Positions 22,803-63,378 of a stretch of DNA of 64,000 nt are shown one piece after another (positions within the stretch are counted from its first letter, which is position 1; each line of letters starts with the position of its first letter). The position numbers and the translations under genes were made by a program. This stretch comes from a virus, in IMG/VR virus record IMGVR_UViG_3300045115_000211, positions 49,195 to 113,194 of that record; one strand, 5' to 3'. The notes under the pieces are model-generated. The model was not told the origin of the DNA. It did no database searches and worked only from the letters and a program-made list of their open reading frames with translations.

Positions 22803-23578
22803 GCATGGGCGTCAGGCTCAAGCAATGACGTTGGCCAGAAAGACGCCGTGGGCCAAGGGCAGGAGGCTGGCTTGGGTCAGCCACGGCGACCAGGCTCACC
22901 GTTGCTGGCACGTGCCGTACGCCGTGCCGCCTAGGACGGCGGTCTGCGGCTACCACATACATCGACAACGTGGAGACGGTCCCCGAGATGGTCACGCAGG
23001 ATGTGGCGTCGGGGCTTGCGAAGTGGGTCAGGTGGATTGGCGACAGGCATGCGGCTCCAAGGGTCATGGTCGGGAAGGCCCACAGCAGGGGCATACTGGA
23101 CGGCCAAGGATTTCGCGACGCCTCCATCACCCTGCGCGAGCTGATGGGGGACATGCCGGAGGGCTCACGAGACTATGCCGACGTCTGCTCCAGCGGAGCA
23201 TGGGAGCACGCCCCATGACGTCCCGGAAGATCGCTCCTGCGACAACCACAGGAAGGCCCACACGCCGCGAGAGGCGGCGTCCATCGTGGACGTCGCCAGG
23301 AGGACGGGTGGCGAGGCGTTCTTCGACGCCCTGTCCTGCCTCGCCGCGGACGGCCTGACCAAGTCCCAGTTCGATCTCATCCGCAGGGCCGCCGCGTCCG
23401 CCGTCGTCAGGAACTCGGCTTGCCCCTTCTGCAAGGGCGAATCCACTGTGCTCGCCGCAAGGGCGAGCGAGGCGTCATGCCGCTGGTGCCTGAGGGCCTG
23501 ATCTTCGCCGTTGACTCCGCCGCCGTCCTGTGCCATCATCTTGGCATCGAGACAACCCATCGCGAGAGGAGAAACCAT

Positions 23579-24757
23579 ATGCCGTTCGTCAAGGGATCCG
23601 AGCACCGCTTCGCCATGAGGGGAGCCGACAGGACGCCCACGTTCCCCGACCGCTGGTACAACACGAAGGACGGCATCGCGAGGTCGGCGAAGACGCTCGC
23701 CGGCCTGAACGCCCTATTCAGCGCCAGGCGCGACGCGGGATATTGCCGCAACGAGCGCCTCGCCGAGTTCGTGGTCCTCGGCATGTGGTACCTCGACACC
23801 TGCGGCAACGCCATGAAGGCGATGTCCGACGCCCGGGACTTCAACGTGACGCCCAGGAAGGCGTTCACAGACGCCGGCATGGCCATCCCCGACGCCATCG
23901 GGATGGACGAGATGCACGCCGCCCTCAAGCCCCACTATGCCGAGGACAAGTACCCGCACATGTCGTTCGCGGCGGGGAGCGACCTTCCACAGGCCTATTT
24001 CCTGTGCGCTGGGTGCGGCCGCCCGTGGACCATCGCCGACTGCGACGACGCCGTGTGCGAGCGGGAGGAGGAGGTGGCGAAGGCCGAAGGCTGCGCCGGG
24101 ATGACGCTCGGGGACTTCCGCAGGTCGTTCGATGGGCGCAACGACGCCTTGTTCGTGTTCCAGCCCGAACTCGCCGTCCGCAACGACCGCTTCATCGACC
24201 TGTCGCCGAAGTACCCCGGCACGGACAAGGATTGGGAGAAGGGCGTCCCCAAGAACGAGCACGGATGGAAGTCGGAGGGGGAACTCTCTGCCTCGATGGA
24301 CGCGGGGGAAATCCACGCCCCGGCGTCATCCCAGCCGAACGTCGACACCTACGTCCTGCAGCCCGGCGACGAGGTCTTGGTCAACGTGTTCCGCTACAGC
24401 CACAGGGCATGCCTCCAGGCCAAGGTCGACCGGGCCGCCATGGCGGCGTTCGCCAAGGCGTTCGAGGACGCCGGCCTGCGGACGGGGATCGGGCTGGCGG
24501 AGGTCGAGAACGAGTACGGCTCCCGCTCGTACCGCGGGCCGTGGTACGTCGCCATGACCGAGATCGGCGAGGTCCGCGTCGGATGGCGCAAGCGGGTCAT
24601 CGAGGTCGTCTTCCCCGACTGGGTCCCCGTCGGCACCCTGTTCGCCAAGGAGGACGTCACCAAGTCGGCACACCTGATCCACGCCTGGGGCTACGACAAG
24701 CTGGCCGAGTACCTCAAGGCGGCGAAGAAAGCGGCGAAGGAAGCGAGGAAGACATGA
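23579..24757 (+). CDS. conserved phage hypothetical protein
   Basis: GPWY...GWRKRVI...EDVTK...IHAWGY; promoter 23511; AGGAG RBS. Confidence 0.75.
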   Translation: MPFVKGSEHRFAMRGADRTPTFPDRWYNTKDGIARSAKTLAGLNALFSARRDAGYCRNERLAEFVVLGMWYLDTCGNAMKAMSDARDFNVTPRKAFTDAGMAIPDAIGMDEMHAALKPHYAEDKYPHMSFAAGSDLPQAYFLCAGCGRPWTIADCDDAVCEREEEVAKAEGCAGMTLGDFRRSFDGRNDALFVFQPELAVRNDRFIDLSPKYPGTDKDWEKGVPKNEHGWKSEGELSASMDAGEIHAPASSQPNVDTYVLQPGDEVLVNVFRYSHRACLQAKVDRAAMAAFAKAFEDAGLRTGIGLAEVENEYGSRSYRGPWYVAMTEIGEVRVGWRKRVIEVVFPDWVPVGTLFAKEDVTKSAHLIHAWGYDKLAEYLKAAKKAAKEARKT

Positions 24758-25143
24758 GGAAGCAGGAGAAGTTCGTCCCATCCCTCAACGACCGCGGCTA
24801 CAGGTTCCGCTGCCATGCCAAGGGCGCGCCTGGGGCGTCCGTCGTGTTCGACGTCAGGACCCACCCCCAGTGCTTCGGAACGGGCGACATCCCCGCCCGC
24901 TCGACCTGCCTCATCGATGGCAAGGGGCGGGAGGTCTTCGAGCACGACGTGCTTGAGCTCAGGTCGACAGTCACCGACATGCACAAGCGCAACGCGACGG
25001 GCGAGTACGGCCCGATGCTGTTCCTCGTGGCGTGGCGCCACGGCGACCCCGTCCTGATCGACCAGGACGCTGTAGAATGGCTTATGGCAGGTAGGGTCGC
25101 TCGCCACGGGCGAGCGTGGATTGAAACGATGGAAGGGGATTGA
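24754..25143 (+). CDS. YopX-like protein whose 3' end runs through a CRISPR repeat
   Basis: FRC, STCLIDGKGREVFEHDVL, VAW; ends VARHGRAWIETMEGD. Confidence 0.6.
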   Translation: MRKQEKFVPSLNDRGYRFRCHAKGAPGASVVFDVRTHPQCFGTGDIPARSTCLIDGKGREVFEHDVLELRSTVTDMHKRNATGEYGPMLFLVAWRHGDPVLIDQDAVEWLMAGRVARHGRAWIETMEGD

Positions 25144-25184
25144 CAAGGCGCGACTTCGCCCCGCAAACGGGGCGTATATTGGAC
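25096..25184 (+). CRISPR. mini-array: full repeat (25096-25127), 27-nt spacer, degenerate repeat (25155-25184); candidate Cas-regulating RNA
   Basis: repeat identical to first array repeat; second unit TTCGCCCCGCAAACGGGGCGTATATTGGAC keeps a 7-bp stem and a tail resembling the repeat's; TAGAAT -10 at 25073. Confidence 0.8.
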
Positions 25185-25241
25185 GGGTCATGGACTGTGG
25201 CTACCATGGGATTTCTCAATGCCACTTCTTGGGTCGTTGCG

Positions 25242-25298
25242 AAAAAAAAAAGATTCTATGGAAAGGGGTTGACTCCCGACCCATAGTTGTGAGATACT
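25242..25298 (+). promoter_or_regulatory. cas operon promoter with A-tract and TTC-PAM-flanked mini-array target
   Basis: A-tract, TTC 25254-25256, TTGACT 25269-25274, GATACT 25293-25298 (18-bp spacer). Confidence 0.75.
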
Positions 25299-25362
25299 GT
25301 TGCCAGTTGGACCAAGGTGGTTCAACGTGTCGTAGAAACGAAGGAAGAACAGGAGAGTGAGT

Positions 25363-26265
25363 ATGTCGCAGAAGTCGCAGAAGGTCGAGTTCGAGGTTAA
25401 TGGAGTTCGCTATGTGGTGTTCGTCGATGCGCGGAGGTCCAACCCTAACGGGCAGGGACAGGGCGAGAACCAGCCCAGGCACTTCGACGACGGCACCGTG
25501 TGGGCCAGCGCAGAAAGCATCAAGCGCGGCATCAGGGACACGTGGATCGCAGAACTGGATGGCGTCCCCGGCTGCGACGTGTTCGTCTACCCCAGGCGCC
25601 CCATCGTGGAGGCCATCGCTGCGGCCCGTCCCGGACGCCAGCGGTTCGACGACGCCGGCGAGATGGCTGCGGCGGTACGCCAGAAGTACATCGACGCACG
25701 GGCGTTCGGTGTCGTCCTGGCAGACGGCAAGGCCGAGAGCGGCGACGATGACGATGGCGGCTCCAAGAAGAAGTCAAAGCAGCTTTCGATCGGGCTCAGG
25801 GGGCCAGTCGTCGTCACCGACGCCGACTCCGTCGAGCCCACGCCGATCGAGGAAATGGACATCTCTCGCTGCTGTCCCCACAAGGACGACAACGACAAGG
25901 ACCACAACCAGGGGAAGAAGTGGTTCGTCCGCTACGGCCGCCTGCGCTTCTGCGTCTATGTCGAGCCGCACATGGCTCGCCAGAGCGGGTTCAGCAAGGA
26001 AGACCTCGGGCGCCTGGAGGATGCCCTGAAGGACGTCTACAAGCACAGGCGCACCGCCAGCCGCCCCGACATGAGGACCGTGGCCGTCTACCGGCTGACC
26101 CCTCGCGAAGGCATGAAGCCCTCGTCGAGGGCGATGGACGAGATCACCGACCGCATCCAGTCCAAGCGGGTCGTCCCCGGAGACGTCCCGACCGAGGGGT
26201 GCTACTCCCTGCCCAACGCCGAGGAGTTCTGCACCGAGCAGGTTCTCGTCGAAAGGATCGACTGA
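25363..26265 (+). CDS. cas7: type I-C Cas7 (Csd2)
   Basis: SNPNG...N.PR, SIKRGIRD, YIDARAFG, LRGPV, GFSKEDL; AGGAG RBS. Confidence 0.92.
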   Translation: MSQKSQKVEFEVNGVRYVVFVDARRSNPNGQGQGENQPRHFDDGTVWASAESIKRGIRDTWIAELDGVPGCDVFVYPRRPIVEAIAAARPGRQRFDDAGEMAAAVRQKYIDARAFGVVLADGKAESGDDDDGGSKKKSKQLSIGLRGPVVVTDADSVEPTPIEEMDISRCCPHKDDNDKDHNQGKKWFVRYGRLRFCVYVEPHMARQSGFSKEDLGRLEDALKDVYKHRRTASRPDMRTVAVYRLTPREGMKPSSRAMDEITDRIQSKRVVPGDVPTEGCYSLPNAEEFCTEQVLVERID

Positions 26266-26272
26266 CCGACAC

Positions 26273-26309
26273 GATTGCCGCCTGTGGCTGCTTGCCACAG
26301 GCGGCAATC
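26273..26309 (+). repeat. perfect 16-bp inverted repeat between cas7 and cas5
   Basis: GATTGCCGCCTGTGGC-TGCTT-GCCACAGGCGGCAATC. Confidence 0.9.
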
Positions 26310-26326
26310 AACCAAGGGAGGCAACC

Positions 26327-27007
26327 ATGGCTACCAGCAGCAACGTCAGGGTCCTGGTCGGGATTCGCGGGCGCAGGGCCTGCTTCTCCAACCCGTCCGC
26401 CGGCAAGATCAACAAGTTCTCGTACCCGTTCATCACGGTGTCGGCGGCGCGAGGAGTGGTGGCGTCCGTGTTCCATCGCCCGCAGATGGACTGGGTGCCG
26501 ACCCGCATTGCGGTCATGAGGGCCGGACGGTCCGCCAACGTCGCCAGCAACGAAATCGACTTCGATCTGTCGTCGACCGATCCCGTCTTCGCCGACGAGG
26601 CAAGGATGCAGGTCAGCGCGCGGATTCTCGTTGACGTCGACTACATCATCGAGGCCGAGCCGGTCGTGCTCTGCCCCGGAACCACCGATGACCCGAACAC
26701 GCCGGAGAAGTATGCCGCACAGTTCAACCGCATCTTGGTGGACGGCAAGGGGCTGTACTACTCCACGCCGTGCCTTGGCCCGCGCCAGTACGTCGGGCGG
26801 CTCTATCCCGTCGAGCGGTTCCCGGAGCGGGGGTGCGCGATCCCCGACCTGGAGGTCCGATCCATGTTGGTCGGCATCTCCAAGGGCGCCGACAGGCGCG
26901 ACGGCGGACGGGACTATCCCGTTTTCGCCGACATCCGCCTCGTAGATGGGATCTTCTCCGCCCCGAGGTTCGTGTCGTCCATGTTCAACCCTGGAGAATC
27001 GGCATGA
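26327..27007 (+). CDS. cas5: type I-C Cas5 (Cas5d)
   Basis: G.RACFSNP, SYPFITVSAARG, DVDYIIEA, PCLGPR. Confidence 0.92.
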   Translation: MATSSNVRVLVGIRGRRACFSNPSAGKINKFSYPFITVSAARGVVASVFHRPQMDWVPTRIAVMRAGRSANVASNEIDFDLSSTDPVFADEARMQVSARILVDVDYIIEAEPVVLCPGTTDDPNTPEKYAAQFNRILVDGKGLYYSTPCLGPRQYVGRLYPVERFPERGCAIPDLEVRSMLVGISKGADRRDGGRDYPVFADIRLVDGIFSAPRFVSSMFNPGESA

Positions 27008-28836
27008 TTTCGATGAGCCCGGTCCAGGAGGTCATCGCCCTGTATGACGCGCTTTCGGCGGCTGGCCAGATGCCGCCCCTTTGTTGGGGGCAGGCGACGA
27101 TCGGAATGACGGTGAAGATCGACGATCATGGGGGCGTCAGGACCGCCATGCCGCTCGGCAATGACTGCTCGATGGTCGTCCCCATCCCGTTCGTGTCCAG
27201 GTCCTCTGGCCTGGCGCCGACATTCGGGACGGACAACGCCAAGTACCTCGTGGGCGAGGCATGGGAGGCGTGGCGCGAACACCACCTCGCCTTCTCCGAC
27301 AAGGCCGCGTTCCCTCCCGCATTCGTCCACTTCCTCAAGAACGGGAAGACCCCGTTCGTCCCCACCAAGGAACCCAAGATCATCAGGCTCTCGGGTTCGG
27401 ACTTGTCGGGGACGTTCGTCATCGAGTTGCCTGACGGCACCTACCTGCACGAACACGCCAGCGTCAAGTCGTTCTGGCAGCCGGACAACATCATCGATTG
27501 GGAGAACCACGGCAGGCTGTCCCAGGGTCGAGACCCGATCCGCACCGTCGAGGGGTATTCATCGGTCGACGGCAAGTGGGGCAAGCTCGTCGAGTTCCAC
27601 GCCGCGATCGGGATGGTCGTACCCGAGGCCCAAGGCTCCGCCAAGCTGGGGGCGGTAAACACCAGTGGCGGGGGGTACTCTTCGTACGGAATGGACGGCG
27701 GCTTCACTTCCCCCATGACCATCGACCAGACGTTCAAGTTGGCATCGACGATCAGGTTCCTTGGCAACAGGGACAAGGCCGCAGGAGACCGAACGTCGTG
27801 CAGGCCGATCGTCGCGCGGGGAAGGAAGATCAGCATCATGTCCGACAGGATGAAGGCCGTGAAGGCCCTCGTCCTGGGCTGGGGCGAGCCGACGGCGGTG
27901 TCGTGGATGAACGAGGAGTTCGCCAAGGACGACGACTCCATGAGGAAGGCCATCGACGTCATCGATGGGATCATGTGCGGCAAGGCCGAGGTTCCTGGCG
28001 TGACGCAGGACGACCGGGTGTGCTTCATGGCGATGTCCGCCCCGACCAAGGGTCGGATAGCCATTGACGAGTTCTGGTCTGGGGACGCGCCGACCGTCGC
28101 CGTCAAGATGGCCAAGTGGCACGCCGCATCGATGACCACGGATCCCGACATGACCCGGCAGGTGCAGACGAGGTACCAGTTCGTGAAAAGCCTCGGGATT
28201 GGCCACGACAAGGCGCTGAACGAGAGCGAGGCGCACGTCGTCAGGGGACTGTTCCAGTCCGCCATCGAAGGCGAGCAGATGCCGGTCGACATCGCATACC
28301 ATGTCAGGAGGGCATGCCAGAGGGTTCTGGCCACAGGGGACGCATTTGTCCACGGGCGTTCGAGCCTGTACAGCCCACTGCGCACGCTCCGGGGCTGCAT
28401 GGCTAGGGCGGGAGTGGGGTTCAATGAGGGAGGATACGAGATGATCGATAAGACCGCGGCATACCAGTTGGGCGTCCTGCTGATAGCGTTCGACGACGCC
28501 GTGCGGAGCGACGAGTGGAGGCGGACGAGGAAGTGGAGCCGCAGCAGCGTTAACGGCCTGCACTCGAACACGAAGAGCATCCTTCCGACGTGCCTGGCGA
28601 AGCCGTCGGCGGCGGTGGCCACAATGCGGCATAAGCATATGCAATACTACGCGCGGTATTGGCCGCAGGACGCCGTCAACATCAACGACGAGTGCTTCTC
28701 CGCTCTGCCCGCAACCCCTCTTTCGCAGCAGCAGCGGGACGAGTTCTTCGCCGGCACCGCACACGGCCTCGAACTGCGCTCCAGGAAGATCGCCGCCATC
28801 AAGGCGGCAAAGACCCAGAGGGAAGCGCGTGAATAG
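27004..28836 (+). CDS. cas8c: type I-C large subunit Cas8c (Csd1)
   Basis: LYD, VP...RSSGLAP.F..DNAKYLVG, SSYG, GRIAI, AYQLG.L; ATGA overlap with cas5. Confidence 0.88.
   Translation: MISMSPVQEVIALYDALSAAGQMPPLCWGQATIGMTVKIDDHGGVRTAMPLGNDCSMVVPIPFVSRSSGLAPTFGTDNAKYLVGEAWEAWREHHLAFSDKAAFPPAFVHFLKNGKTPFVPTKEPKIIRLSGSDLSGTFVIELPDGTYLHEHASVKSFWQPDNIIDWENHGRLSQGRDPIRTVEGYSSVDGKWGKLVEFHAAIGMVVPEAQGSAKLGAVNTSGGGYSSYGMDGGFTSPMTIDQTFKLASTIRFLGNRDKAAGDRTSCRPIVARGRKISIMSDRMKAVKALVLGWGEPTAVSWMNEEFAKDDDSMRKAIDVIDGIMCGKAEVPGVTQDDRVCFMAMSAPTKGRIAIDEFWSGDAPTVAVKMAKWHAASMTTDPDMTRQVQTRYQFVKSLGIGHDKALNESEAHVVRGLFQSAIEGEQMPVDIAYHVRRACQRVLATGDAFVHGRSSLYSPLRTLRGCMARAGVGFNEGGYEMIDKTAAYQLGVLLIAFDDAVRSDEWRRTRKWSRSSVNGLHSNTKSILPTCLAKPSAAVATMRHKHMQYYARYWPQDAVNINDECFSALPATPLSQQQRDEFFAGTAHGLELRSRKIAAIKAAKTQREARE
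28441..28836 (+). CDS. cas11: internally translated small subunit Cas11 (131 aa)
   Basis: in-frame ATG with GGAGG (28429-28433) 7 nt upstream, just before AYQLG. Confidence 0.75.
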   Translation: MIDKTAAYQLGVLLIAFDDAVRSDEWRRTRKWSRSSVNGLHSNTKSILPTCLAKPSAAVATMRHKHMQYYARYWPQDAVNINDECFSALPATPLSQQQRDEFFAGTAHGLELRSRKIAAIKAAKTQREARE

Positions 28837-31234
28837 GCGCGACAAGACCCGATACGTCGGGATGGTCGAGGGCCTCGGCCTCAACCCCTATTCCCGCCCC
28901 GCGCATCTGGAAAACGGCTTGCTGGCCCCGCGGGAGCGGTGGGAGGTGATGCCGGAACACCTGGGCGCCGTCGCGGCCTTGGCCAAAGCGTTCGGAGACA
29001 AGATCGGTCTCGGAGACATATGCGAGGTGGCGGGAGGCGGGCACGACACGGGAAAGTTTGACCTCCAGATGCTTGGCAGGTTCCTTGGCCGCGTCGAGTC
29101 GTTCGACCATCCCGCCCTCGGCGCCGCCCTGTTGGACGCCGCCACGGAAGGCATACTGACGCAGCCGATCCTAGGGCACCACCGCTACATCCCCGACGAG
29201 ACGGAGGAGGACGCCTCGGAATGCGTGTCTGCAAGGCTGGAGAAGGCAGCCACCCATCGGCATTCCATCGAACTGATACCCTTTCTGGATCGCGCCGCCG
29301 AGGCAGCCAGGACGGCGAAGTCCGTCCTGAAGGCGGCGTTGCGGTCGGAATTCCCGAACGCCGCCGACCAGGAGCGCTTCTTCCCGATGTTCTTCTTCGC
29401 GATGCAGAAGTTCATCAACTCGGCCCTCGTCGATGCGGACTGCCTGTCAGCCGAGAGGTTCCACAAGGGTCACGGACGCCGGAACAGGTTCCCCCCGATG
29501 TCCGTCCTCCTGGATCGACTCGTGAGGTTCCAGGCCCGGGTTGCCGCCGCAGGAGCGGCGACGGCGGAGCCTTGGCTTGTTGAAATGCGCAACGACGTGT
29601 GGGCGTCCGCGATCTCCGCCGCCCGGCTGGAAGCCTCGTTGTACTTCCTGACCGCCCCGACGGGAAGCGCCAAGACGCTGGCCTACGTCGTGCTTGCGAT
29701 GATGAAGGCCGTCAGCTTGGGCCTCGACAGGGTGATCATCGTGCTGCCCTATTGCGCGGTCACGTCCCAGGTCAGCGACGTCCTTCGGGCCGCCATCGGC
29801 AGGGGCAATGTGATAGAGCACCACACGGGCTACGACCCCAAGGAACGAGTCAAGTCTTTCCGCTCGTACCGCCAGATACTGGCGAACACCCCAAGGAACA
29901 CATCGGCGTTGCACAAGGAGTCCTCCAGCCTGCAGGAGGAGATGAGGCAGACTTTCGAGAACTGGGACGCCCCCGTGATCGTCACCACGCGCGAGCAGTT
30001 CGACGAGTCCTTCTTCTGCCGGCTCCCAGGGCGCAGCCGCAAGGTCCACAACATGGCCAGGAGCGCCATCGTGTTCGACGAGATCCAGGCCGGCAACAGG
30101 GACCTGACCATACCGTTCGTCGGGATGCTGCACGTCCTGCGGTCGCTGTACCGCTCGGTCGTCATCTGCTCCACGGCCACCCAGCCGTCCTATCACAAGT
30201 CTGACGACAGGCAGTGGGGACTGGAAGGAGGGGTCGATGTCGTCGCCAGGCATCGCGAGTATTTCGCCATCGCTTCTCGACGCACCAGCATGACCAGGAT
30301 AGGCAGGAAGTCATCCCGAGAAGTGGCCGAGATGGTCGCCGAGCACCGCCAGGTCATGTGCGTCCTGAACACGCGCCTCAACGCCGTTCTCGTCTCGACA
30401 CAACTGGAGAGGATGGGGGTTCCACACATCCTGCTGTACTCCTTGCGCTGCAAGCGCGAGCGCAACCGGGTGGTTCGCCTGGTGGCGAGGTGCCTGGCAG
30501 CAGGCATCCCCATCAGGCTGGTCACCACCCAGGCGGTCGAGGCGGGGACTGACTTCGACTTCCCGGTCGGGTATTCCGAGGACGCCCCGTTGGACTCCCT
30601 CGACCAGCGCCGCGGTCGAGTCAACCGGCACGGAAGGCGTGGGACGAGCCAGTTCTACGTGTTCACCCTGTGTGACGGCAACAGCAACCCCTCGTACGTA
30701 GCGGGCTTGGCCTCCACCGAGACCGTCCTCTCATCGACGGGGGACTTCAACGTCGTCGACGTCGGGACGATGGACGCCTACTACGCCAGGATGTTGAGGA
30801 GCGAGAAGCCGCTCGACAAGCACAGGATCGTCCCCGACAGGCACATGTCGATGTCCGGGCGCGGCGGTCTTTTCAGGTCGAAGTCGAAGTATCCTCCGAC
30901 CGCCGGGGCCAATGTCTACAGGACGAGGTTCGCCTCGTACGACGAGTTCAAGTACATCGGCGGAAAGTGCAGCGTCGTGATCCCTACCAACGCCGAGTGC
31001 AGGCGGGCGATAGCCGACATGGATGCCGCCATGGCATCGGGAAAGAAGCCCGCTCGAAAGACGTTGGCCACCTTGAGCGGATACGTCGTCAGCATCTATG
31101 AGAACGAACTGGATGATCTCGCCCGTAAGACCATCTTGGAGAACCACAATGGGTTCTTCGTCCTGCGCGATGTGGCTGGCTTCTATAATGCCAAGAGGGG
31201 TCTGCTGATCGCTGGGATGGATGGAGTGGATTGA
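28829..31234 (+). CDS. cas3: Cas3 HD nuclease-helicase
   Basis: EHL, HDTGK, GHH, LVDAD; APTGSAKT, ENWDAP, DEIQ, TATQP, TQAVEAG, QRRGRVNR. Confidence 0.95.
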   Translation: MNRRDKTRYVGMVEGLGLNPYSRPAHLENGLLAPRERWEVMPEHLGAVAALAKAFGDKIGLGDICEVAGGGHDTGKFDLQMLGRFLGRVESFDHPALGAALLDAATEGILTQPILGHHRYIPDETEEDASECVSARLEKAATHRHSIELIPFLDRAAEAARTAKSVLKAALRSEFPNAADQERFFPMFFFAMQKFINSALVDADCLSAERFHKGHGRRNRFPPMSVLLDRLVRFQARVAAAGAATAEPWLVEMRNDVWASAISAARLEASLYFLTAPTGSAKTLAYVVLAMMKAVSLGLDRVIIVLPYCAVTSQVSDVLRAAIGRGNVIEHHTGYDPKERVKSFRSYRQILANTPRNTSALHKESSSLQEEMRQTFENWDAPVIVTTREQFDESFFCRLPGRSRKVHNMARSAIVFDEIQAGNRDLTIPFVGMLHVLRSLYRSVVICSTATQPSYHKSDDRQWGLEGGVDVVARHREYFAIASRRTSMTRIGRKSSREVAEMVAEHRQVMCVLNTRLNAVLVSTQLERMGVPHILLYSLRCKRERNRVVRLVARCLAAGIPIRLVTTQAVEAGTDFDFPVGYSEDAPLDSLDQRRGRVNRHGRRGTSQFYVFTLCDGNSNPSYVAGLASTETVLSSTGDFNVVDVGTMDAYYARMLRSEKPLDKHRIVPDRHMSMSGRGGLFRSKSKYPPTAGANVYRTRFASYDEFKYIGGKCSVVIPTNAECRRAIADMDAAMASGKKPARKTLATLSGYVVSIYENELDDLARKTILENHNGFFVLRDVAGFYNAKRGLLIAGMDGVD

Positions 31235-31271
31235 AATTGGACGAGCCGTCTGCCGGATGAGGACAGAGCAA

Positions 31272-32678
31272 GTCGCTCGCCACGGGCGAGCGTGGATTGA
31301 AACGACTCCACCCGTCGGGATCAATGGCGGACAGAGGTCGCTCGCCACAAGCGAGCGTGGATTGAAACCCCGACTCGTTCCTGCTGCCCGAGTTCGACGA
31401 GTCGCTCGTCACAGGCGAGCGTGGATTGAAACTGTTCGGGCTTTTGCGACCAAGCCTGATAGCGCTTGTCGCTCGCCACAGGCGAGCGTGGATTGAAACA
31501 GGTTGTTGCCGAGCGCCGCGAGCCGCAACACGAGTCGCTCGCCACAAGCGAGCGTGGATTGAAACGACTCTCGCCGCCGGCATCAATGAAGGTCATGGTC
31601 GCTCGCCACAGGCGAGCGTGGATTGAAATGCGCGCTCGCCGTACGCCTGCCCAAGCTCAGGGGCGTCGCTCGCCACATGCGAGCGTGGATTGAAATGGGT
31701 CTTCGGGCAGGCACAGACCCTGTAGGTATGTCGCTCGCCACAGGCGAGCGTGGATTGAAATAGCGCCTGCTTGGCGGCGATGTAGGCGTCCAGTTGTCGC
31801 TCGCCACAGGCGAGCGTGGATTGAAATGAGAGCGAACGCCGCGGACATCGCGGCACGACGGGTCGCTCGCCACAGGCGAGCGTGGATTGAAATATCTGGG
31901 TTCGGTCCCTGTCGCCGATGACGCGACGTCGCTCGCCACAGGCGAGCGTGGATTGAAACCTCCCGTACCCGCCGGGCATGCTCAGGTGCTACGGTCGCTC
32001 GCCACAGGCGAGCGTGGATTGAAACGACCGTGAGGGCCTGCCCCAATGTATGTGGCGGTCGCTCGCCACAGGCGAGCGTGGATTGAAACGCGTACGTGCA
32101 ACTCGTACGAAAGCTGGCCAACGGTCGCTCGCCACAGGCGAGCGTGGATTGAAACCTTCACTTGCCCCCGTCTCGCCGCTCGGCGTGTCGCTCGCCACAG
32201 GCGAGCGTGGATTGAAACGCCCTGCATGCCGTCAGGGCCGAGGCGGTGAAGATCGCTCGCCACAGGCGGGCGTGGATTGAAACGTGACGAACGGGGAGAC
32301 AACGGTCGACCCTCTGCGTCGCTCGCCACAGGCGAGCGTGGATTGAAACGCCTCCAAAGCGCCGCGCCACGGCCGCCATGGAGTCGCTCGCCACAGGCGG
32401 GCGTGGATTGAAATATGATGTTCGAACTGGACTGCCCGATCCCGTCTGGTCGCTCGCTACAAGCGAGCGTGGATTGAAACATGTCGAGTCCCTCCTGATA
32501 CGCGCCCACCATGGAGTCGCTCGCCACTGGCGAGCGTGGCATTGAAACAAGGTCCGCAGGATATCGATGTGGCCCGACGAGGTCGCTCGCCACAGGCGAG
32601 CGTGGTATTGAAACCGCAAGCCCCGCTGATCGACATCACCTGCCCGGTCGCTCGCCACAGGCGAGCGTGGATTGAAAC
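31272..32678 (+). CRISPR. type I-C CRISPR array, 22 repeats / 21 spacers (31-35 nt), plus a repeat remnant at 31226-31237
   Basis: consensus GTCGCTCGCCACAGGCGAGCGTGGATTGAAA[C/T], 32 bp, palindromic. Confidence 0.98.
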
Positions 32679-32818
32679 GAGGATTGAACACAAACAAACC
32701 CTCTTTGCCGTTGACTCCGCACCGCCCCGTGACAACCTCGTCTGGTCGCCATACAAAAGCGGTTGACTCCGCATGCCAACGATGCCATAATGCCCGCGAC
32801 AGAAGAGAGGAGAGACAC

Positions 32819-33532
32819 ATGGGCGACGAAACCAAGGCGTTGACGGGCGAGGCGGAGGTGCCGAGGAACACGGGGCCCGACGAGCACGAGTCCTACGGGC
32901 TGGCGCGCTTCTCCAGGGTCCAGGGCAGCCCCGGCAGGCTCTTCGGGTCCGCCATCGACCACCACCACTTCATCGAGCTGACCATCAGCCGCGGCGCCCG
33001 CCGCAGGGATTTCCAGCGCGACTGGTACTCCCCCAAGGACGAGATCGTCAGCGTTATCATGTCGCCCACCCAGTTCGCCGAGCTGCTCACCAACCTGAAC
33101 GTGGGCGAGGGCGTGCCCTGCACCATCCAGCACGTCAACCGGAAGACGATGGCCAAGTGCCCCGAGAAGACCTTCGCCGAGCAGACCCACGACGACCTGA
33201 AGGGCGAGTTCAAGAGGCTCGCCCAGCGGATCGCCGCCCTGTCCAGGACGGCCGACACGATGCTGTCCGGCCCTGGCGCCCTCAAGGCGTCCGACAAGGC
33301 CAGGGTCAAGGCGGAGATCGCCGCCATCCTCCAGGAGGTCGGCAGCAACATCCCCTTCATCCACGAGTGCTTCCAGGAGGCCTGCGACAAGACCGTCGCC
33401 GACGCCAAGGCGTCCGTCGACGCCGCCGTCCTCCACGCCCAGGTCACCCTCGGCAAGGAGGCATGCGCAAGGCTCGGCCTAGGGGGCGAGTCCGCCAGGG
33501 CCGCCATCGAGGCTCCCAAGCCGAACGTATGA
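32819..33532 (+). CDS. conserved phage hypothetical protein
   Basis: LFGS, MSPTQFAE, GEGVPCTI; promoter 32763; AGGAG RBS. Confidence 0.75.
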   Translation: MGDETKALTGEAEVPRNTGPDEHESYGLARFSRVQGSPGRLFGSAIDHHHFIELTISRGARRRDFQRDWYSPKDEIVSVIMSPTQFAELLTNLNVGEGVPCTIQHVNRKTMAKCPEKTFAEQTHDDLKGEFKRLAQRIAALSRTADTMLSGPGALKASDKARVKAEIAAILQEVGSNIPFIHECFQEACDKTVADAKASVDAAVLHAQVTLGKEACARLGLGGESARAAIEAPKPNV

Positions 33533-42403: not shown

Positions 42404-43453
42404 ATGGGTGCCATGAAGTCAACGAAGCACCGGCATGTCGCCGGGCGGGCGGCCGAAAGGCTGGACGCCGCCCTGCGGGTGGACGCCGACGCCGCCAGGC
42501 GCGAGCACGCCCTCGTGGCGATGGCGACGCTGCTCGTCTCCGGGGGCTGCCGCGCCTGCTCGTCCCCGCGGGAGGTGAACCGGCTGATGCCCGACGGGGA
42601 GTGGTTCCGCACGCGGCACGAGCTGAGGCGCGTCACGGGCGGGCGGAAGGCGGCGCTGCGGAGGCTCGCCGCCGGCGGGATCGTGCCTGCCGGCCGTTTC
42701 GGGGCATGGTCGCCCGACTTCTGGGCTGGCTTGCGGCTTTCCGGCGCGATCCATCCCGACAGCCATCCGAGGGAGTGGGTCGTGAGGTTCCCGCGCAGGC
42801 ACGAGGCGTTGCTGGAGGACATGCTGGGCGAGGCGCCGTTCATGCGCCGCTGGTCGGACTCCAAGCGTGGGGTGACGCTCTGGTCGCTGTGGGCGGCGGA
42901 GATGGGGGCCGACGATCCGGCGGGCGCCGGCGTGCTGGCGGGGCTGATGGCTGGGGCGCGCAGGCTGGACGACGGACAGGGGATGGGGTGGGCCGTGGTG
43001 ACGGACTCCTTGGGCGCCAGGCGGCTTCTGGGGGATCTGATGGTGCCTTTCGTTGTGGAGCGGCGGAGGCGGGGGCTGGCGTTGAGCCCGTTCTGGGGGG
43101 CGCTGGTGGCGCACATGATGCCTGCGGCGAGCGCGGAGAGGTACAGGCTGTGGCTTCGGCCGGCGTGCTGTCCCTTGCTGCCGTGGGCGTTCCTGGCGCA
43201 CGCCTGGGGGAAGGGGTTCGCCGGGATGAGGCGGCACGTGCCGTGGGCGTCGGCGCGTCCGTGGGCGATCAGGGGCAGGTTCCCCACGGAGGGCAGGCGG
43301 CTCCGGAGGGCTGGCCTGGACAGGCTGGGGTTCCTGGGCGTGTCGCCCGTGTTGAGGGCCGCCTGGCTGGAGGGGGCGCGTCGGAAGGGGCTTGACTTCG
43401 AAGGGGGGATGTGTCATGATGGTCTCGTGAAAGGGGAGGAAGGGACGCCATGA
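42404..43453 (+). CDS. hypothetical Arg/Trp-rich protein next to the skew switch
   Basis: long ORF; start 42404 or 42413. Confidence 0.65.
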   Translation: MGAMKSTKHRHVAGRAAERLDAALRVDADAARREHALVAMATLLVSGGCRACSSPREVNRLMPDGEWFRTRHELRRVTGGRKAALRRLAAGGIVPAGRFGAWSPDFWAGLRLSGAIHPDSHPREWVVRFPRRHEALLEDMLGEAPFMRRWSDSKRGVTLWSLWAAEMGADDPAGAGVLAGLMAGARRLDDGQGMGWAVVTDSLGARRLLGDLMVPFVVERRRRGLALSPFWGALVAHMMPAASAERYRLWLRPACCPLLPWAFLAHAWGKGFAGMRRHVPWASARPWAIRGRFPTEGRRLRRAGLDRLGFLGVSPVLRAAWLEGARRKGLDFEGGMCHDGLVKGEEGTP

Positions 43454-44831: not shown

Positions 44832-45383
44832 ATGGCTGAGATGGGAAGGTTCCAAGGGAGTCTGGACGGCGAGGTGATGCCCCGGCTGGTCGTCGGGGCG
44901 ACGGGGCGCAGGTTCCGGGGCCGCGAGGTGGTGTCGTTCAGGCATCCGCCGGGGCTGTTCGGGACGCGGGCGACGGGGAGGGAGCGGGTGCGCGAGGGGA
45001 CGGTGGCGAACGGGCTGCTGAACCAGTGCGCGATCACGGACCCCCCGACGCCGTACTGGGCGGTGATGGACGCGATGTGCTCGCTCAAGTCGGGCTTCAC
45101 GAAGCGGCAGGCGATCGACGCCGCGGTGGGGCACGTGGGCGAGGGCAAGCGGCGGGCGTGCGAGATCGCGTGGGACGTGCTGCGCAACCACCACAGGCAC
45201 GAGCGCAAGCGCGACGCGGGGATGGGGTTCATGGTCGACACGCTGGAGGGCGGCAGGATGGCGGTGCGCGCGAGGGCGCCCGGCGAGACGCTGGCGTACT
45301 TCGCGGCGGAGCGCGGCCGCAGGGAGGCGGCGGAGGCGGTGCTGGCGGGGGACGGGCAGGGCGGGGCGCAGGACGGAGGGTGA
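44832..45383 (+). CDS. hypothetical protein
   Basis: promoter 44778; GGAGG RBS. Confidence 0.65.
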   Translation: MAEMGRFQGSLDGEVMPRLVVGATGRRFRGREVVSFRHPPGLFGTRATGRERVREGTVANGLLNQCAITDPPTPYWAVMDAMCSLKSGFTKRQAIDAAVGHVGEGKRRACEIAWDVLRNHHRHERKRDAGMGFMVDTLEGGRMAVRARAPGETLAYFAAERGRREAAEAVLAGDGQGGAQDGG

Positions 45384-47077
45384 CGATGGTCAGCGAAGGA
45401 GGCTTGCCGGGCGGCATCCTGAGGGTCAGTCTCGCCCCGCGGGCGAGGACGGCGGCCCTTCCAAGGCCACGCTCGTCTTCGGGATCGGCGACGCCAGGGA
45501 CGTGAGCGCGTCGGCGGTGGAGGCGGCGAGGCCCGTGCCCGGGAGCCGTCGCGTGGAGGCGATCATGGGCGGGCGCGGGGGGAAGGCAGTGGGACGGGAG
45601 GAGTCCCGAAAGGCGGAGGTTCTGGGGCTCGCCGGCAGGCTCGCCGACCTCGTGGCGGCGGGCGACGCCGTGACGGGCGAGATGAGGGCCCTCGCCATGG
45701 CGATCCGCTCGGCCCTCGGCGCAGGGCCGCTGGGGGAGTCGGCGCAGGGCAGGGCGAAGGCGGGAGACCTGGTGCCGGGCGGCATCTACGTGGCGAAGGG
45801 CAGGCCGCAGGGCGAGTTCGACTGGGAGTACGTCGGCAAGGTGGATGGCGATCCGGCGAGGTTCCGGATGAGGCGCGAGGGGATGGGCCCGACGGTCGAG
45901 CTGCTGGGCGACCACGGCCTTGCGCCCTACGACGCGCAGGGGAAGTTCTGGCATCCGACGAACTGGACGGAGGGGACGGGAGTGGGTGCGGGCACGGCGA
46001 GGGCCGTGGCGGAGGCGGCTGGCCGCGACGCCCCGGACGTGTCGTTCCCGACGGAGGACGGGGATGGGTTTCCTGGAGTTGGCGCTTGAGGACTCGCCGT
46101 ATTCCGAGTGGCTCGTCGATGACGAGGACCGCGGGAGGAGGCTCGTGCACGCCTCGATGGGGCGTCTGGACGAGTCGTGGGCCTCGGCGCGCAGGACGAC
46201 GCTGTCGGTGATGTGCGTCGTCGTGGCGTGCGCGGGCCGCGCCGACCGTCCCCTGGCGAGGCGGCTGGTGCTCTCGATGGCGGGGATGATGTCCAGGATG
46301 TGCGACTTCTGGTCGTCGAACGCCGGGTCGGTGACGGCGGGGCTGCCGGAGACGTCGGAGCTCAAGGCGGAGTCGGACGCGACCGACGTCCTTGGCCAGG
46401 AGCTGGGCGGGAAGGCCGACGGGCTGCTCGCGGGGGTGATGGTCACGATGCTGGTGGAGCTGCCGGCGTCGTGGCGGGCGCACTTCGGGCTGGCGGCGGA
46501 CGCCGTCAGGTCGCTGGGCGGGCTGCTGTCGCCCGACGACGCGTCGTGGGCGGCGAGGCAGGCGGCGGAGGAGCAGCGCGCGATGATGGCTGGCCTCGTG
46601 GCCGAGCTGGAGGACGCGACGTCGCCGGGGTCGGCGGCCTTGCGGGCGGCGGAGTCCTGGGCCGGCAGGGCGAGGGCGACGCACGCCGCGCACGCGGGGC
46701 TGGGGCAGCGCGCCGCGATGGCGGCTGTGGTGAGGGCGGCTGGGTTCCCGAGCGCGGGGTGAGGGTGAGGCATGCCTTTCGGGGTGGACGTCAAGGTGAG
46801 GGGGACGTGCGTGACGAGGAACGGGGAGTTCCCCGTGGCGCGCATGGCGTGCACACTGGATGGCGGGCAGGCGGACCTGCGCTTCGTGTCCGAGCGGCTG
46901 CGCAGGTCGCTGCGCTCCGGGGCGAGGCTGCGCGCGGAGGACATGGACAGGTTCTGCGAGGAGTGGCTGCGGATGCGGGGGCGTCCACTGGATGCGGACG
47001 CCGCCAGGCGCAGGGCGCGGCTGCGCGACCTGATCGCCAGGATGTCCCGCGAGGCCGACGCGCTGTAGAATGCGCGC

Positions 47078-48494: not shown

Positions 48495-49448
48495 GTGAGG
48501 ATCCTGGTCACCGGCGGCGCCGGCTACGTGGGCAGCGTCGTGACGAGGCTCCTGCTCGACCGCGGCCACGAGGTGGCGGTGCTGGACAACCTTGAGGCCG
48601 GGCACAGGAAGGCCATCGACCCGAGGGCGGCGTTCCTGGAGGGCGACCTGCGTCGCACGGACGACGCCTCCGACGTCGTGGAGATCGTCACGGGGCTCAG
48701 GCCGGAGGCGGTGGTCCACATGGCGGCGTACGCCCTGGTCGGCGAGTCCGTCCTGAACCCGTGGATGTACCTGAACAACAACGTCGGCGGCGGCGTGAAC
48801 CTGCTGCACGCGATGTGGGTGTCGGGGTGCCGCCGGATCGTGTTCTCTTCGAGCTGCGCCACGTACGGGAACCCGGACTTCCTGCCCATCACGGAGGCGC
48901 ATCGCCAGGCCCCTGTCAGCCCCTACGGGGAGTCGAAGCTGATGTTCGAGCGCATGCTCAGGGTGATGTCGGGGGAGATCCGCTCCACCTCGCTGCGGTA
49001 CTTCAACGCCTGCGGGGCGTGGGAGGGGCTGGGGGAGGACCACGATCCGGAGACCCACCTGGTCCCGAACGCGTGCAAGGCGGTCCTGGGGCAAGGCGAG
49101 CCCCTGGTGGTGCACGGGGACGGGTCGCAGGTGAGGGACTACGTCCACGTGAGGGACATCGCCCAGGCGCACGTGCTCGCCCTTGAGCAGGACGTGGCGG
49201 GCGAGATGAACCTCGGCACCGGGATCGGGCACAGCGTGTCGGAGGTCGTCGCCGCGGTGTCGGCCGCGGCCGGCCGAGAGGTCCCCCTCCGCTTCGGGCC
49301 GCCCCGTCCGGGCGATCCGTCGAGGCTGGTCGCCGACCCTCGGCTCGCCGTCGAGAGGCTCTCGTGGCGCCCGTCCATCCCCCTGGAGGAGAGCGTGAGG
49401 TCGGCCCTCGAATGGCACGGGTCCCGCCCCAGGGGATATGGGGGTTGA
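48495..49448 (+). CDS. galE: UDP-glucose 4-epimerase
   Basis: TGGAGYVGS, FSSSCATYG, YGESK, LRYFN, GEDHDPETHL, RDYVHV. Confidence 0.93.
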   Translation: MRILVTGGAGYVGSVVTRLLLDRGHEVAVLDNLEAGHRKAIDPRAAFLEGDLRRTDDASDVVEIVTGLRPEAVVHMAAYALVGESVLNPWMYLNNNVGGGVNLLHAMWVSGCRRIVFSSSCATYGNPDFLPITEAHRQAPVSPYGESKLMFERMLRVMSGEIRSTSLRYFNACGAWEGLGEDHDPETHLVPNACKAVLGQGEPLVVHGDGSQVRDYVHVRDIAQAHVLALEQDVAGEMNLGTGIGHSVSEVVAAVSAAAGREVPLRFGPPRPGDPSRLVADPRLAVERLSWRPSIPLEESVRSALEWHGSRPRGYGG

Positions 49449-59733: not shown

Positions 59734-59850
59734 CGGTGGAGTGGAGTGGGCGACACGGTGGGGCGTCCCGTCGGGGGCGCCCTTCCCGTCTCCTGGGTTG
59801 ACTCCCGGGCCGGCGGGTGGCATAATTGGGCGAGAAAGAGGAGGGACCGC

Positions 59851-61071
59851 ATGGCCGCCAAGGACAAGGTAGAGAGCTTCTGCTTCCTGTGCAACACGTC
59901 CGCCGACAAGGTGAAGGGCCGCCTCATCGAGGGAACCAAGGGGATGGTGTGCAGGTCGTGCGTCGAGAAGTGCGTGCGCATCTACGCCGAGCGCGACGGC
60001 AGGGCCAAGACGGCCGCCGCCCCGGCGCCCCAGAAGGCCCCGGCGCCGCGGGAGATCAAGGCGTTCCTCGACCAGTACGTCGTGGGGCAGGACCGCGCCA
60101 AGCGGGCGCTGTCGGTCGCCGTCCACAACCACTACTCGCGGGTCTTCGCCCAGGGCGACCACATGCCGGAGGTCGAGCTGGACAAGAGCAACGTGCTGCT
60201 GGTCGGCCCCACCGGCACCGGCAAGACCCTGCTCGCCCAGACCCTCGCCCGCATGCTTAAGGTCCCCTTCGCCATCTCCGACGCGACCACGCTGACCGAG
60301 GCCGGCTACGTCGGCGACGACGTGGAGAACGTGCTGCTCAGGCTCTACATGGCGGCCAACGGCGACATGGCGCGCGCCCAGATCGGCATCTGCTATATCG
60401 ACGAGATCGACAAGATCGCCAAGAAGGGCTCCGGGACGTCCATCACCCGCGACGTCAGTGGGGAGGGGGTGCAGCAGGCGCTCCTGAAGATCGTCGAGGG
60501 CACGGTCAGCAACGTGCCCCTGCACGGAGGCCGCAAGCACCCCGGAGGGGAGAACGTCCAGATGGACACGAGCAAGATCCTCTTCATCGTGGGTGGGGCT
60601 TTCGTCGGCCTTGACAAGATCGTCGAGCGCAGGGCGAAGGGCAAGGGGGTCCTCGGCTTCGGGGCCGACTCCGCCAGGACGAGGTCCGCCGAGAGGATCG
60701 AGCCGGAGGATCTGATCGAGTACGGGATGATCCCGGAGTTCGTCGGCCGCCTGCCCGTGGTGGTCGGGCTGAAGGAGCTGGGGGAGAAGGACCTGCTGGA
60801 CATCCTGGAGCGCCCCAAGAACGCCGTGCTCAAGCAGTTCGTCAAGCAGATGGCGATCGACGGAGTCAGGCTGTCCTTCGAGGACGAGGCCAAGGCCGAG
60901 ATCGCCAGGATCGCGAAGGCGCGCGGAACGGGCGCCCGCGGCCTGCGCGCGGTGGTCGAGGAGGTCATGCTGGACCTCTCCTTCGACGCGAAGGACGGGA
61001 CCGAGGTCGTGGTGACCAAGGCGATGGTGCAGGCGTCGTCGAACGGGGGCAGCGGCAACGAGGCCGCTTGA
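59851..61071 (+). CDS. clpX: ClpX unfoldase
   Basis: C4 Zn finger, [33 protein letters not shown] loop, GARGLR. Confidence 0.95.
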
Positions 61072-63060: not shown

Positions 63061-63378
63061 ATGGGAATCTTCGGATGGTCGTATCCGCCAGGGTGCAGCT
63101 CGGTCCCGGGTGACGAGCCGACCTGGTGCGAGGTCTGCGGCGGGCAGGACATCGACCCGCGGCACGCCCGCCCCGAGCGCGGCCGCTTCGCCTGCGTGTG
63201 CCCCGAATGCCCCGAGTGCGGCGAGGTCGGCAACCCTGGCTGCTACAGGCCGGTCGCCGAGGGCGGCCACGGGCTCGTGAAGTCCGAGGCCCAGTCCAGG
63301 CAGGGCGAGGCGGTGCTGGAGATCCAGCGCAAGGCCGACGAGGACATGGCGAGGGCATACGGCAAGGAAGACGCTTGA
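63061..63378 (+). CDS. Cys-rich hypothetical protein
   Basis: GGAGG RBS; multiple CxxC. Confidence 0.6.
   Translation: MGIFGWSYPPGCSSVPGDEPTWCEVCGGQDIDPRHARPERGRFACVCPECPECGEVGNPGCYRPVAEGGHGLVKSEAQSRQGEAVLEIQRKADEDMARAYGKEDA

Follow-up and report, generated by a model that had tools for sequence, protein, structure and literature searches.

A deeply divergent type I-C CRISPR interference locus with an upstream mini-CRISPR on a viral contig

Type I-C is the smallest of the Cascade-Cas3 systems and is already in use for long-range genome editing. The annotated locus on pDV of Nitratidesulfovibrio vulgaris (D. vulgaris) shows its canonical arrangement, cas3-cas5c-cas8c-cas7c-cas4-cas1c-cas2-array, in which the interference genes are followed by those for adaptation and by the CRISPR array itself. 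Here we analyse a related locus on a linear 113,194-bp IMG/VR virus record (IMGVR_UViG_3300045115_000211), of which the 3' 64 kb, positions 49,195 to 113,194, form the 64,000-nt window whose numbering is used throughout. At 25363-32678 on the plus strand it carries cas7, cas5c, cas8c and cas3 and then a CRISPR array. We read this locus, with a probability of about 0.7, as an intact and deeply divergent type I-C interference variant that serves as a working module on a phage. The record has no end repeats and CheckV places it at about 62% completeness, which leaves some 38% of the genome outside the contig, and all absences reported below hold for this fragment.

CRISPR loci of this kind have precedents on viruses. 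Nearly all loci described on huge phages lack Cas1, Cas2 and Cas4, a type I-C variant among them (Al-Shayeb et al. 2020, PMC7162821). A first-pass annotation of the window, made from the sequence, had noted that large phages often carry such loci, and this precedent bears it out: phage CRISPR without adaptation genes is already known. Two classes of small RNA provide a second point of reference. The CreR cas-regulating RNAs are encoded by mini-CRISPRs in cells, with I-C candidates reported (bioRxiv 10.1101/2023.03.10.532045), and the viral Cracr RNAs, composed of a single repeat, a psi-spacer and a terminator, are aimed at host systems, I-C included (10.1101/2024.10.29.618823). What is unusual at the present locus is the depth of its divergence, the rearranged operon, the joining of the array to cas3, and an apparently self-directed mini-CRISPR on a viral system.

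Identity and divergence of the interference module

The full interference module called at first pass stands gene for gene and position for position: cas7, cas5c, cas8c, cas3 and the array are complete and look intact, and profile typing places all four proteins best with I-C models. Cas7 (probably Csd2-like, 300 aa, 25363-26265) passes the Pfam model Cas_Cas7 (E 5.7e-36, 124.8 bits), and its best PADLOC model is the joint I-B/I-C Cas7 (Cas7b/Cas7c). Cas5c (226 aa, 26327-27007) is recognised by PADLOC Cas5c at 1.3e-26 and matches the solved I-C Cas5 8g9t_N over its full length (E 6e-17). Because no cas6 is present, Cas5c is presumed from its sequence to be the endonuclease that processes the precursor of the CRISPR RNA (pre-crRNA). 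Cas3 (801 aa, 28829-31234), an HD nuclease fused to a superfamily 2 helicase, matches PADLOC Cas3c at 1.2e-119 and the solved I-C Cas3 entries 8g9u/8zns at about 1e-52; it scores 47.9 bits with cas3_HD, over the cut-off of 43.45, and 99.7 bits with cas3_core, just under 102.45. For both Cas5 and Cas3 there is an alignment to the I-C subunits solved from Neisseria. The NCBIfam scores of Cas7, Cas5c and Cas8c lie far under the curated cut-offs, as with TIGR02589 for Cas7 (99.6 bits, cut-off 182.25) and TIGR01863 for Cas8c (48.7 bits, cut-off 218.65).

Cas8c (Csd1, 610 aa from the ATG at 27004, 27004-28836) is found by Pfam Cas_Csd1 (PF09709) at 2.7e-27, with 96.1 bits against a cut-off of 27, and by PADLOC Cas8c at 3.7e-25. 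When it was compared with solved structures by phmmer, no sequence match was obtained. An AlphaFold (AF2) model was built on five clade members, with a predicted local distance difference test score (pLDDT) of 68. Its top 11 Foldseek matches are all I-C Cascade entries, full-length Cas8c chains first, with E from 6.6e-15 to 9e-3. Cas8c is of type I-C by profile and, as modelled, also by fold.

A further subunit may be hidden inside this gene. A candidate internal cas11c of 131 aa (28426-28836, plus strand) opens with the Shine-Dalgarno sequence GAGGGAGGA at 28426-28434, six bases 5' of an ATG at 28441 that encodes Met480 of Cas8c. All five clade members have this Met480, and likewise Gly476, without variation. 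The C-terminal helical domain of Cas8c, 131 residues from Met480, is modelled at pLDDT 80-93 and resembles the 117-residue chain 8dex_J of I-C Cascade (probability 0.84, TMt 0.59, with a weak E of 1.4), which we take to be Cas11c. McBride and colleagues reportedly found in 2020 that the Cas11c of I-C is translated from an internal start. From sequence and model together we infer that the internal start within cas8c would yield a candidate Cas11c. The genes around it are tightly packed, with cas5c and cas8c overlapping by ATGA and cas8c and cas3 by 8 nt; judging by these overlapping start and stop codons, cas5c, cas8c and cas3 are translationally coupled.

The catalytic motifs of Cas3 bear directly on whether the module works. 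Its HD motif is conserved, as are motifs II (DEIQ) and VI. Its Walker A motif supplies the first of several points that weigh against a working module on a phage, the others of which follow with the array and the carrier: it reads PTGSAKT, and PTGSGKT or PTGGGKT is found in 10/10 of the relatives aligned with it, which include clade members as well as proteins of ordinary I-C systems. The Gly-to-Ala change could, judged by sequence, weaken the helicase, and with Cas3 impaired the module would mainly bind or silence instead of shredding DNA. We regard this as very unlikely, the least probable of the alternatives weighed here: the HD motif and motifs II and VI are intact, and cas3 is full length and translationally coupled. 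An alanine before the Walker lysine is tolerated in some ATPases such as MCM.

The proteins have moved far from their counterparts in D. vulgaris, the archetype, in sequence and hardly in size. Identity to D. vulgaris is 25% for Cas7, 27% for Cas5 and 29% for Cas3, and Cas8c is undetected by BLASTP. The lengths are about equal to those in D. vulgaris (300 and 290 aa for Cas7, 226 and 227 for Cas5, 610 and 612 for Cas8c, 801 and 745 for Cas3), and the earlier description of the locus as compact does not hold, since it is smaller only by lacking adaptation genes. An exhaustive phmmer search with Cas8c of 1.84 billion representative proteins returned 11 matches, four of them at E < 1e-30 including the query itself, and the nearest relatives are 32-36% identical. 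For Cas3, six relatives at 39-47% identity are followed by a drop from 589 to 211 bits and to 31% identity or less. Relatives of Cas3 and of Cas8c both occur on contigs of 137,785, 17,617 and 13,159 bp, which suggests that they sit on the same contigs and that the module travels as a unit in a small separate clade. Viral, genome and metagenome contigs were pattern-scanned with Cas7, with the Cas8c clade alignment and with one Cas8c relative (P0007), and no locus could be confirmed in any of them.

The divergence proposed at first pass is strong, as seen in the 25-29% identity, the 11 matches of Cas8c and the score gap of Cas3; with this gap and so rare a Cas8c, the proteins fall outside the ordinary I-C clades. 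As a rare, deeply divergent I-C branch with a rearranged operon, the locus widens the known range of I-C in both sequence and architecture.

Predicted operon transcription and the upstream mini-CRISPR

In a promoter scan of 24600-25400, a single sigma-70-like site was called. This cas promoter has a -35 box TTGACT at 25269-25274, an 18-nt spacer and a TG-extended -10 box GATACT at 25293-25298, and an A10 tract (25242-25251) lies just 5' of it. Promoter prediction over 25300-32762 gave none, and this range includes the 37 nt that separate the first repeat from the cas3 stop. Because no promoter is predicted before the array, the simplest view is that the array forms the 3' tail of the cas mRNA, within a single transcription unit.

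Between cas7 and cas5 this transcript would contain a strong secondary structure. The gap of 61 nt holds a perfect hairpin with a 16-bp stem and a 5-nt loop (26273-26309, plus strand), placed after the stop of cas7 and ahead of the ribosome-binding site of cas5. The 81-nt segment has a folding energy of -43.2 kcal/mol and a z of -6.7, and 0 of 200 shuffles were as stable. The hairpin may be an attenuator or stabiliser that sets Cas7 excess, and it would raise Cas7 over the single-copy subunits by partial termination or by 3'-end protection. It gives some support to the first-pass suggestion that the most abundant subunit was placed first, which stays a suggestion. The 3' arm of the hairpin contains GCCACAGGCG, the same 10-mer that forms the top of the CRISPR repeat hairpin.

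These features can be joined into a working scheme. One host-type promoter 5' of cas7 would drive cas7 and, past the hairpin, cas5c-cas8c-cas3, with transcription then continuing through the array. The resulting pre-crRNA would be cleaved by Cas5c at the hairpin of each repeat, Cascade would assemble from Cas7, Cas5c, Cas8c and the Cas11c made from the internal cas8c start, and Cas3 would degrade DNA targets beside a protospacer-adjacent motif (PAM) that is probably TTC.

A second repeat-containing element lies upstream of the promoter. This CreR-like mini-CRISPR (25096-25184, plus strand) begins with a perfect solitary repeat, R1 (25096-25127), identical to the first repeat of the array and located 236 nt 5' of cas7. 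A psi-spacer of about 26 nt (25128-25153) follows, and then a degenerate second repeat at about 25154-25184 with a 7-bp hairpin of different sequence (25157-25174) and an ...ATTGGAC tail. Both hairpins are present in the minimum-free-energy fold. The predicted target of the psi-spacer shares the interval 25254-25298 on the plus strand with the cas promoter: a TTC PAM occupies 25254-25256, and the protospacer, which starts at 25257, covers the -35 box. Over its first 17 nt the psi-spacer agrees with the target except at positions 1, 8 and 12 (14/17).

This partial match is hard to obtain by chance. On both strands of the contig (226 kb) the cas promoter target is the sole TTC-flanked site with at least 13/17 matches. 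When the psi-spacer is shuffled, a 14/17 match at a TTC arises at a rate of 0.0046 per shuffle genome-wide and in 0 of 5000 cases within the local 229-nt interval, and the 21 real spacers all stay short of 14/17 throughout. The mini-CRISPR recurs without change in L007 and L009, two independent contigs from other metagenomes that are 99.7-99.8% identical to the window and make up the whole of the strain comparison. That the element is a CreR-type autorepressor of its own cas promoter is, in our judgement, an even bet. It would yield a crRNA-like RNA whose short spacer pairs partly with the TTC-flanked -35 site of the same promoter, and Cascade carrying this RNA would bind there without cutting, leaving the operon repressed as in CreR-type control.

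Two features of the match speak against such autorepression. The motif GGAAGGGG-N-TTGAC is also found at a promoter-like site at 43383, where it has no PAM, and the match of the psi-spacer could partly reflect this shared promoter motif and not selection for pairing. The mismatches at seed positions 1 and 8 could, moreover, prevent binding. An alternative built on these points is that the upstream repeat does not regulate its own operon at all, being either the remnant of a decayed array or a Racr/Cracr anti-CRISPR RNA against a host I-C system with the same repeat, with the promoter match explained by the shared motif. We hold this to be possible and somewhat doubtful. A similar GGAAGGGG-N-TTGAC stands at 43383 and, more loosely, at 63366, near-identical repeat arrays in other metagenomes make a host system that loads this RNA plausible, and viral Cracrs against I-C loci have been described (10.1101/2024.10.29.618823). 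The position of the match argues the other way, as the sole TTC-flanked site with at least 13/17 lies just 129 nt downstream, on the operon's own -35 box. The TTGACA of the psi-spacer is followed by no usable -10 at 16-18 nt and was left uncalled by the promoter scan; and the second repeat keeps a 7-bp stem despite its different sequence. Should autorepression hold true, a viral CRISPR system would here be regulating itself through a guide RNA of the CreR type, and the locus would show how a phage limits the cost or self-damage of Cascade-Cas3.

Several further observations concern the same region. A motif GGAAG-N4-TTGAC recurs before the promoter-like sites at 43383 and 63366 and resembles the psi-spacer and cas promoter region; it may be a promoter up-element of this genome. 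R1 lies in the last codons of a 129-aa open reading frame (ORF; 24754-25143) whose composition is coding-like, with a GC content at third codon positions of 0.85, and which stops inside the psi-spacer and has no family match. A CreTA toxin-antitoxin reading was rejected, since the putatively repressed promoter immediately precedes cas7 and leaves no space in which a toxin gene could fit. Rfam gave no family match in 24500-33000, the CRISPR repeat included.

Array, possible spacer source and carrier

The CRISPR array (31272-32678, plus strand) has the same orientation as the cas genes and consists of 22 near-identical 32-nt repeats, with the consensus GTCGCTCGCCACAGGCGAGCGTGGATTGAAAC ending in ATTGAAAC, and 21 spacers of 31-35 nt. 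Its first repeat starts 37 nt past the cas3 stop. A degenerate repeat-like stretch at 31207-31238 on the same strand overlaps the cas3 stop codon; it has no stem, keeps TCGCT... and ...GTGGATTGAAAT, and is followed by a 33-nt spacer-like stretch. By blastn the repeat matches I-C arrays of Nitratidesulfovibrio vulgaris and of Leptolinea plasmids, and the exact repeat is absent from the IMG/VR and GTDB genomes searched.

The first-pass annotation had pictured a weapon against competing elements or host genes, a role for which the spacers provided no target. They have no self-match on their own 113-kb contig, megablast and blastn against 50,697 GenBank phages gave matches at chance level (E 0.4), IMG/VR scans with the consensus of spacers 1 and 5 and with spacers 2 and 3 were empty, and 119 fetched viral loci yielded nothing. 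That no protospacer was found for any spacer in these searches also counts against a working module. TTC is the candidate PAM, the evidence for it being the single TTC beside the partial target of the mini-CRISPR. The best candidate target was a match of spacer 5 to seven Rhodococcus plasmids (29/31, E 0.03), which was rejected since it is flanked by GGT and not TTC and has mismatches at positions 1-3. On Rhodococcus jostii RHA1 pRHL2 (L004) the match falls at 1498-1531, in a gene for a hypothetical protein or helix-turn-helix regulator. The site can be no more than a distant homologue of what spacer 5 truly targets and gives a weak hint that targets or host are actinobacterial.

More can be said on how the array was made. 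Spacers 1 (31304-31336) and 5 (31566-31597) are identical at 22 of 32 positions in register, a level reached by 0 of 2000 shuffles (P < 0.0005), and we take them to have been acquired in two events, from homologous sites in elements that had diverged. On this reading the array was built by real adaptation. The reverse strands of the two spacers could encode similar peptides, ...IDPDGWS and MTFIDAGGES, as if both came from one site in a pair of diverged homologous genes. The likeness of spacer 12 to spacer 5 (18/32) was discarded as not significant (P 0.14).

A possible source of the adaptation machinery came from a metagenome scan, which found four array-only contigs (JGI; L005, L006, L008 and L010) with 15 to 43 repeats. 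Their repeat differs from that of the phage by one loop base, ACAC in place of ACAG, and their spacers have a GC content of 55% compared with 65% in the phage. None of their 94 spacers matches the phage, and they give no link to a host. L005 and L010 have nine spacers in common, and L006 and L008 have five. With such a compatible-repeat system present in nature, Cas1-Cas2-Cas4 could be supplied in trans, the array contigs themselves coming from other samples. New spacers would then stem from Cas1-Cas2-Cas4 encoded elsewhere, in the unseen part of the genome or in a cell with compatible I-C repeats. With long cellular-type arrays whose repeat differs by one base, the acquisition of spacers in trans has a concrete route that can be tested.

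In this context, the absence of adaptation genes needs to be weighed carefully. Pfam models for Cas1, Cas2, Cas4 and Cas6 (PF01881) gave no match in six frames of the whole 113,194-bp contig, and as a control each model matched 4-8 of 14 control genomes. The label adaptation-less given at first pass is thus right for the fragment, which has no cas1, cas2, cas4 or cas6, and goes too far for the genome with about 38% of it missing. Among the points against the module as we read it is that cas1, cas2 and cas4 may exist in this unseen part. The locus would then be a complete adaptive I-C system, with cas4-cas1-cas2 outside the contig and their apparent lack an artefact of fragmentation. The completeness of about 62% in a linear record without end repeats leaves room for this, and the array is long (21 spacers) with real signs of acquisition, spacers 1 and 5 coming from homologous sites. 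We nevertheless find it improbable. The canonical adaptation genes lie between cas7 and the array, a place where two IMG/VR contigs (L060 and L062) also go directly from cas7 to the array, and here the array starts 37 nt after cas3. Neither the 25 kb upstream nor the 31 kb downstream hold adaptation genes, and nearly all published phage CRISPR loci lack them (PMC7162821).

The carrier is most likely a large lytic phage. Its viral call rests on the classification by IMG/VR and CheckV and on gene content, which comprises a ribonucleotide reductase, two DNA methyltransferases, an NAD ligase, a sugar epimerase, ClpX and a ClpP-like protease. The genes of the contig are nearly all co-directional, many are orphans, and several are known as PHROGs only (phrog_5931, phrog_2087). 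The ClpX homologue (59746-61071) is about 50% identical to ClpX of jumbo phages, and the ClpP-like protease (phrog_94) lies at 45195-46091 in the contig numbering of the whole record (G000:C1). The phage setting assumed at first pass is supported by the viral record and by gene content like that of large phages, and lacks confirmation from a capsid or terminase family on the fragment. That no capsid, portal or terminase was found there, with four structural Pfam families tried, is the last of the points on the opposing side. The contig could accordingly be a misclassified plasmid, megaplasmid or other cellular element with an ordinary mobile-element I-C locus; terminase and HK97 capsid families were not found, ClpX, the ClpP-like protease, ribonucleotide reductase, ligase and sugar epimerase are also cellular, and in annotated collections the nearest relatives of the repeat lie on plasmids. 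This we judge quite unlikely. IMG/VR and CheckV both class the contig as viral, its genes are co-directional and mostly without family, several being PHROG-only, and the structural search covered four Pfam families. Structural proteins of jumbo phages often escape such families.

One neighbouring gene was considered as a hidden adaptation protein and dismissed. The 426-aa protein encoded at 23420-24757 has no Pfam, PADLOC or PHROG match, and nothing in it suggests Cas1. Its model (pLDDT 86) found no PDB match by Foldseek (best E 0.03) and background-level ones in VIA (best Z 6.9). It has 92 homologues, none with a Pfam family, some of which occur on contigs of 350-570 kb and in metagenome-assembled genomes of Patescibacteria. 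Cys177, Cys180, His309 and Cys312 are invariant, and the C-terminal domain shows a weak likeness to the DNA-binding domain of T4 MotA (Z 6.5, background level).

Taking the divergent phage module together with its array and mini-CRISPR, a broader and speculative reading can be put forward. The locus might represent a small, undescribed clade derived from I-C and specialised for large phages, with a cas7-first operon and its stoichiometry hairpin, a leaderless array as the tail of the cas mRNA, a CreR-like mini-CRISPR by which the cas genes and crRNAs together would limit themselves in the course of infection, and spacers obtained in trans through a cellular I-C system that shares the repeat. 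We think it doubtful that all of these elements hold together.

Comparison with described systems

With the canonical I-C systems of Nitratidesulfovibrio vulgaris pDV and Neisseria lactamica, the locus shares four interference proteins of similar lengths, the lack of Cas6, a 32-nt hairpin repeat ending in ATTGAAAC, spacers of 31-35 nt, an HD-helicase Cas3 and, probably, a Cas11 inside cas8c. It departs from them in gene order, cas7-cas5-cas8c-cas3 in place of cas3-cas5-cas8c-cas7, a rearrangement recognised at first pass and upheld by comparison with pDV. It also differs in having no cas4-cas1-cas2 on the contig, in an array joined to cas3 without leader or predicted promoter, and in a protein identity of 25-29% with a Cas8c undetectable by BLASTP.

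Among viral systems, the I-C variant of huge phages (PMC7162821) is likewise carried by a phage, has neither Cas1 nor Cas2, and has Cas6 replaced by a Cas5d-like protein; compared by its description, it has another helicase replacing Cas3, whereas the present locus encodes a true HD-Cas3. The IMG/VR contigs L060 (125,741 bp) and L062 (54,627 bp) are also viral and carry an I-C module followed by an array with no cas4, cas1 or cas2 between. Unlike the locus described here, they keep the canonical order cas3-cas5-cas8c-cas7, and their Cas7 is 41% identical to that of D. vulgaris and 27% to that of this locus.

Similarly, the mini-CRISPR has the layout of the CreR/CreA elements and viral Cracr RNAs, namely a repeat followed by a short psi-spacer and then by a terminator or degenerate repeat, adjoining cas genes. 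The psi-spacer pairs in part with a site at the effector promoter's -35, in the PAM-proximal portion of that site. In contrast to these, the mini-CRISPR is on a phage and appears aimed at the phage's own cas promoter rather than at that of a host, its predicted pairing is broken at positions 1 and 8, and it shares sequence with a protein-coding ORF at the 3' end of the latter.

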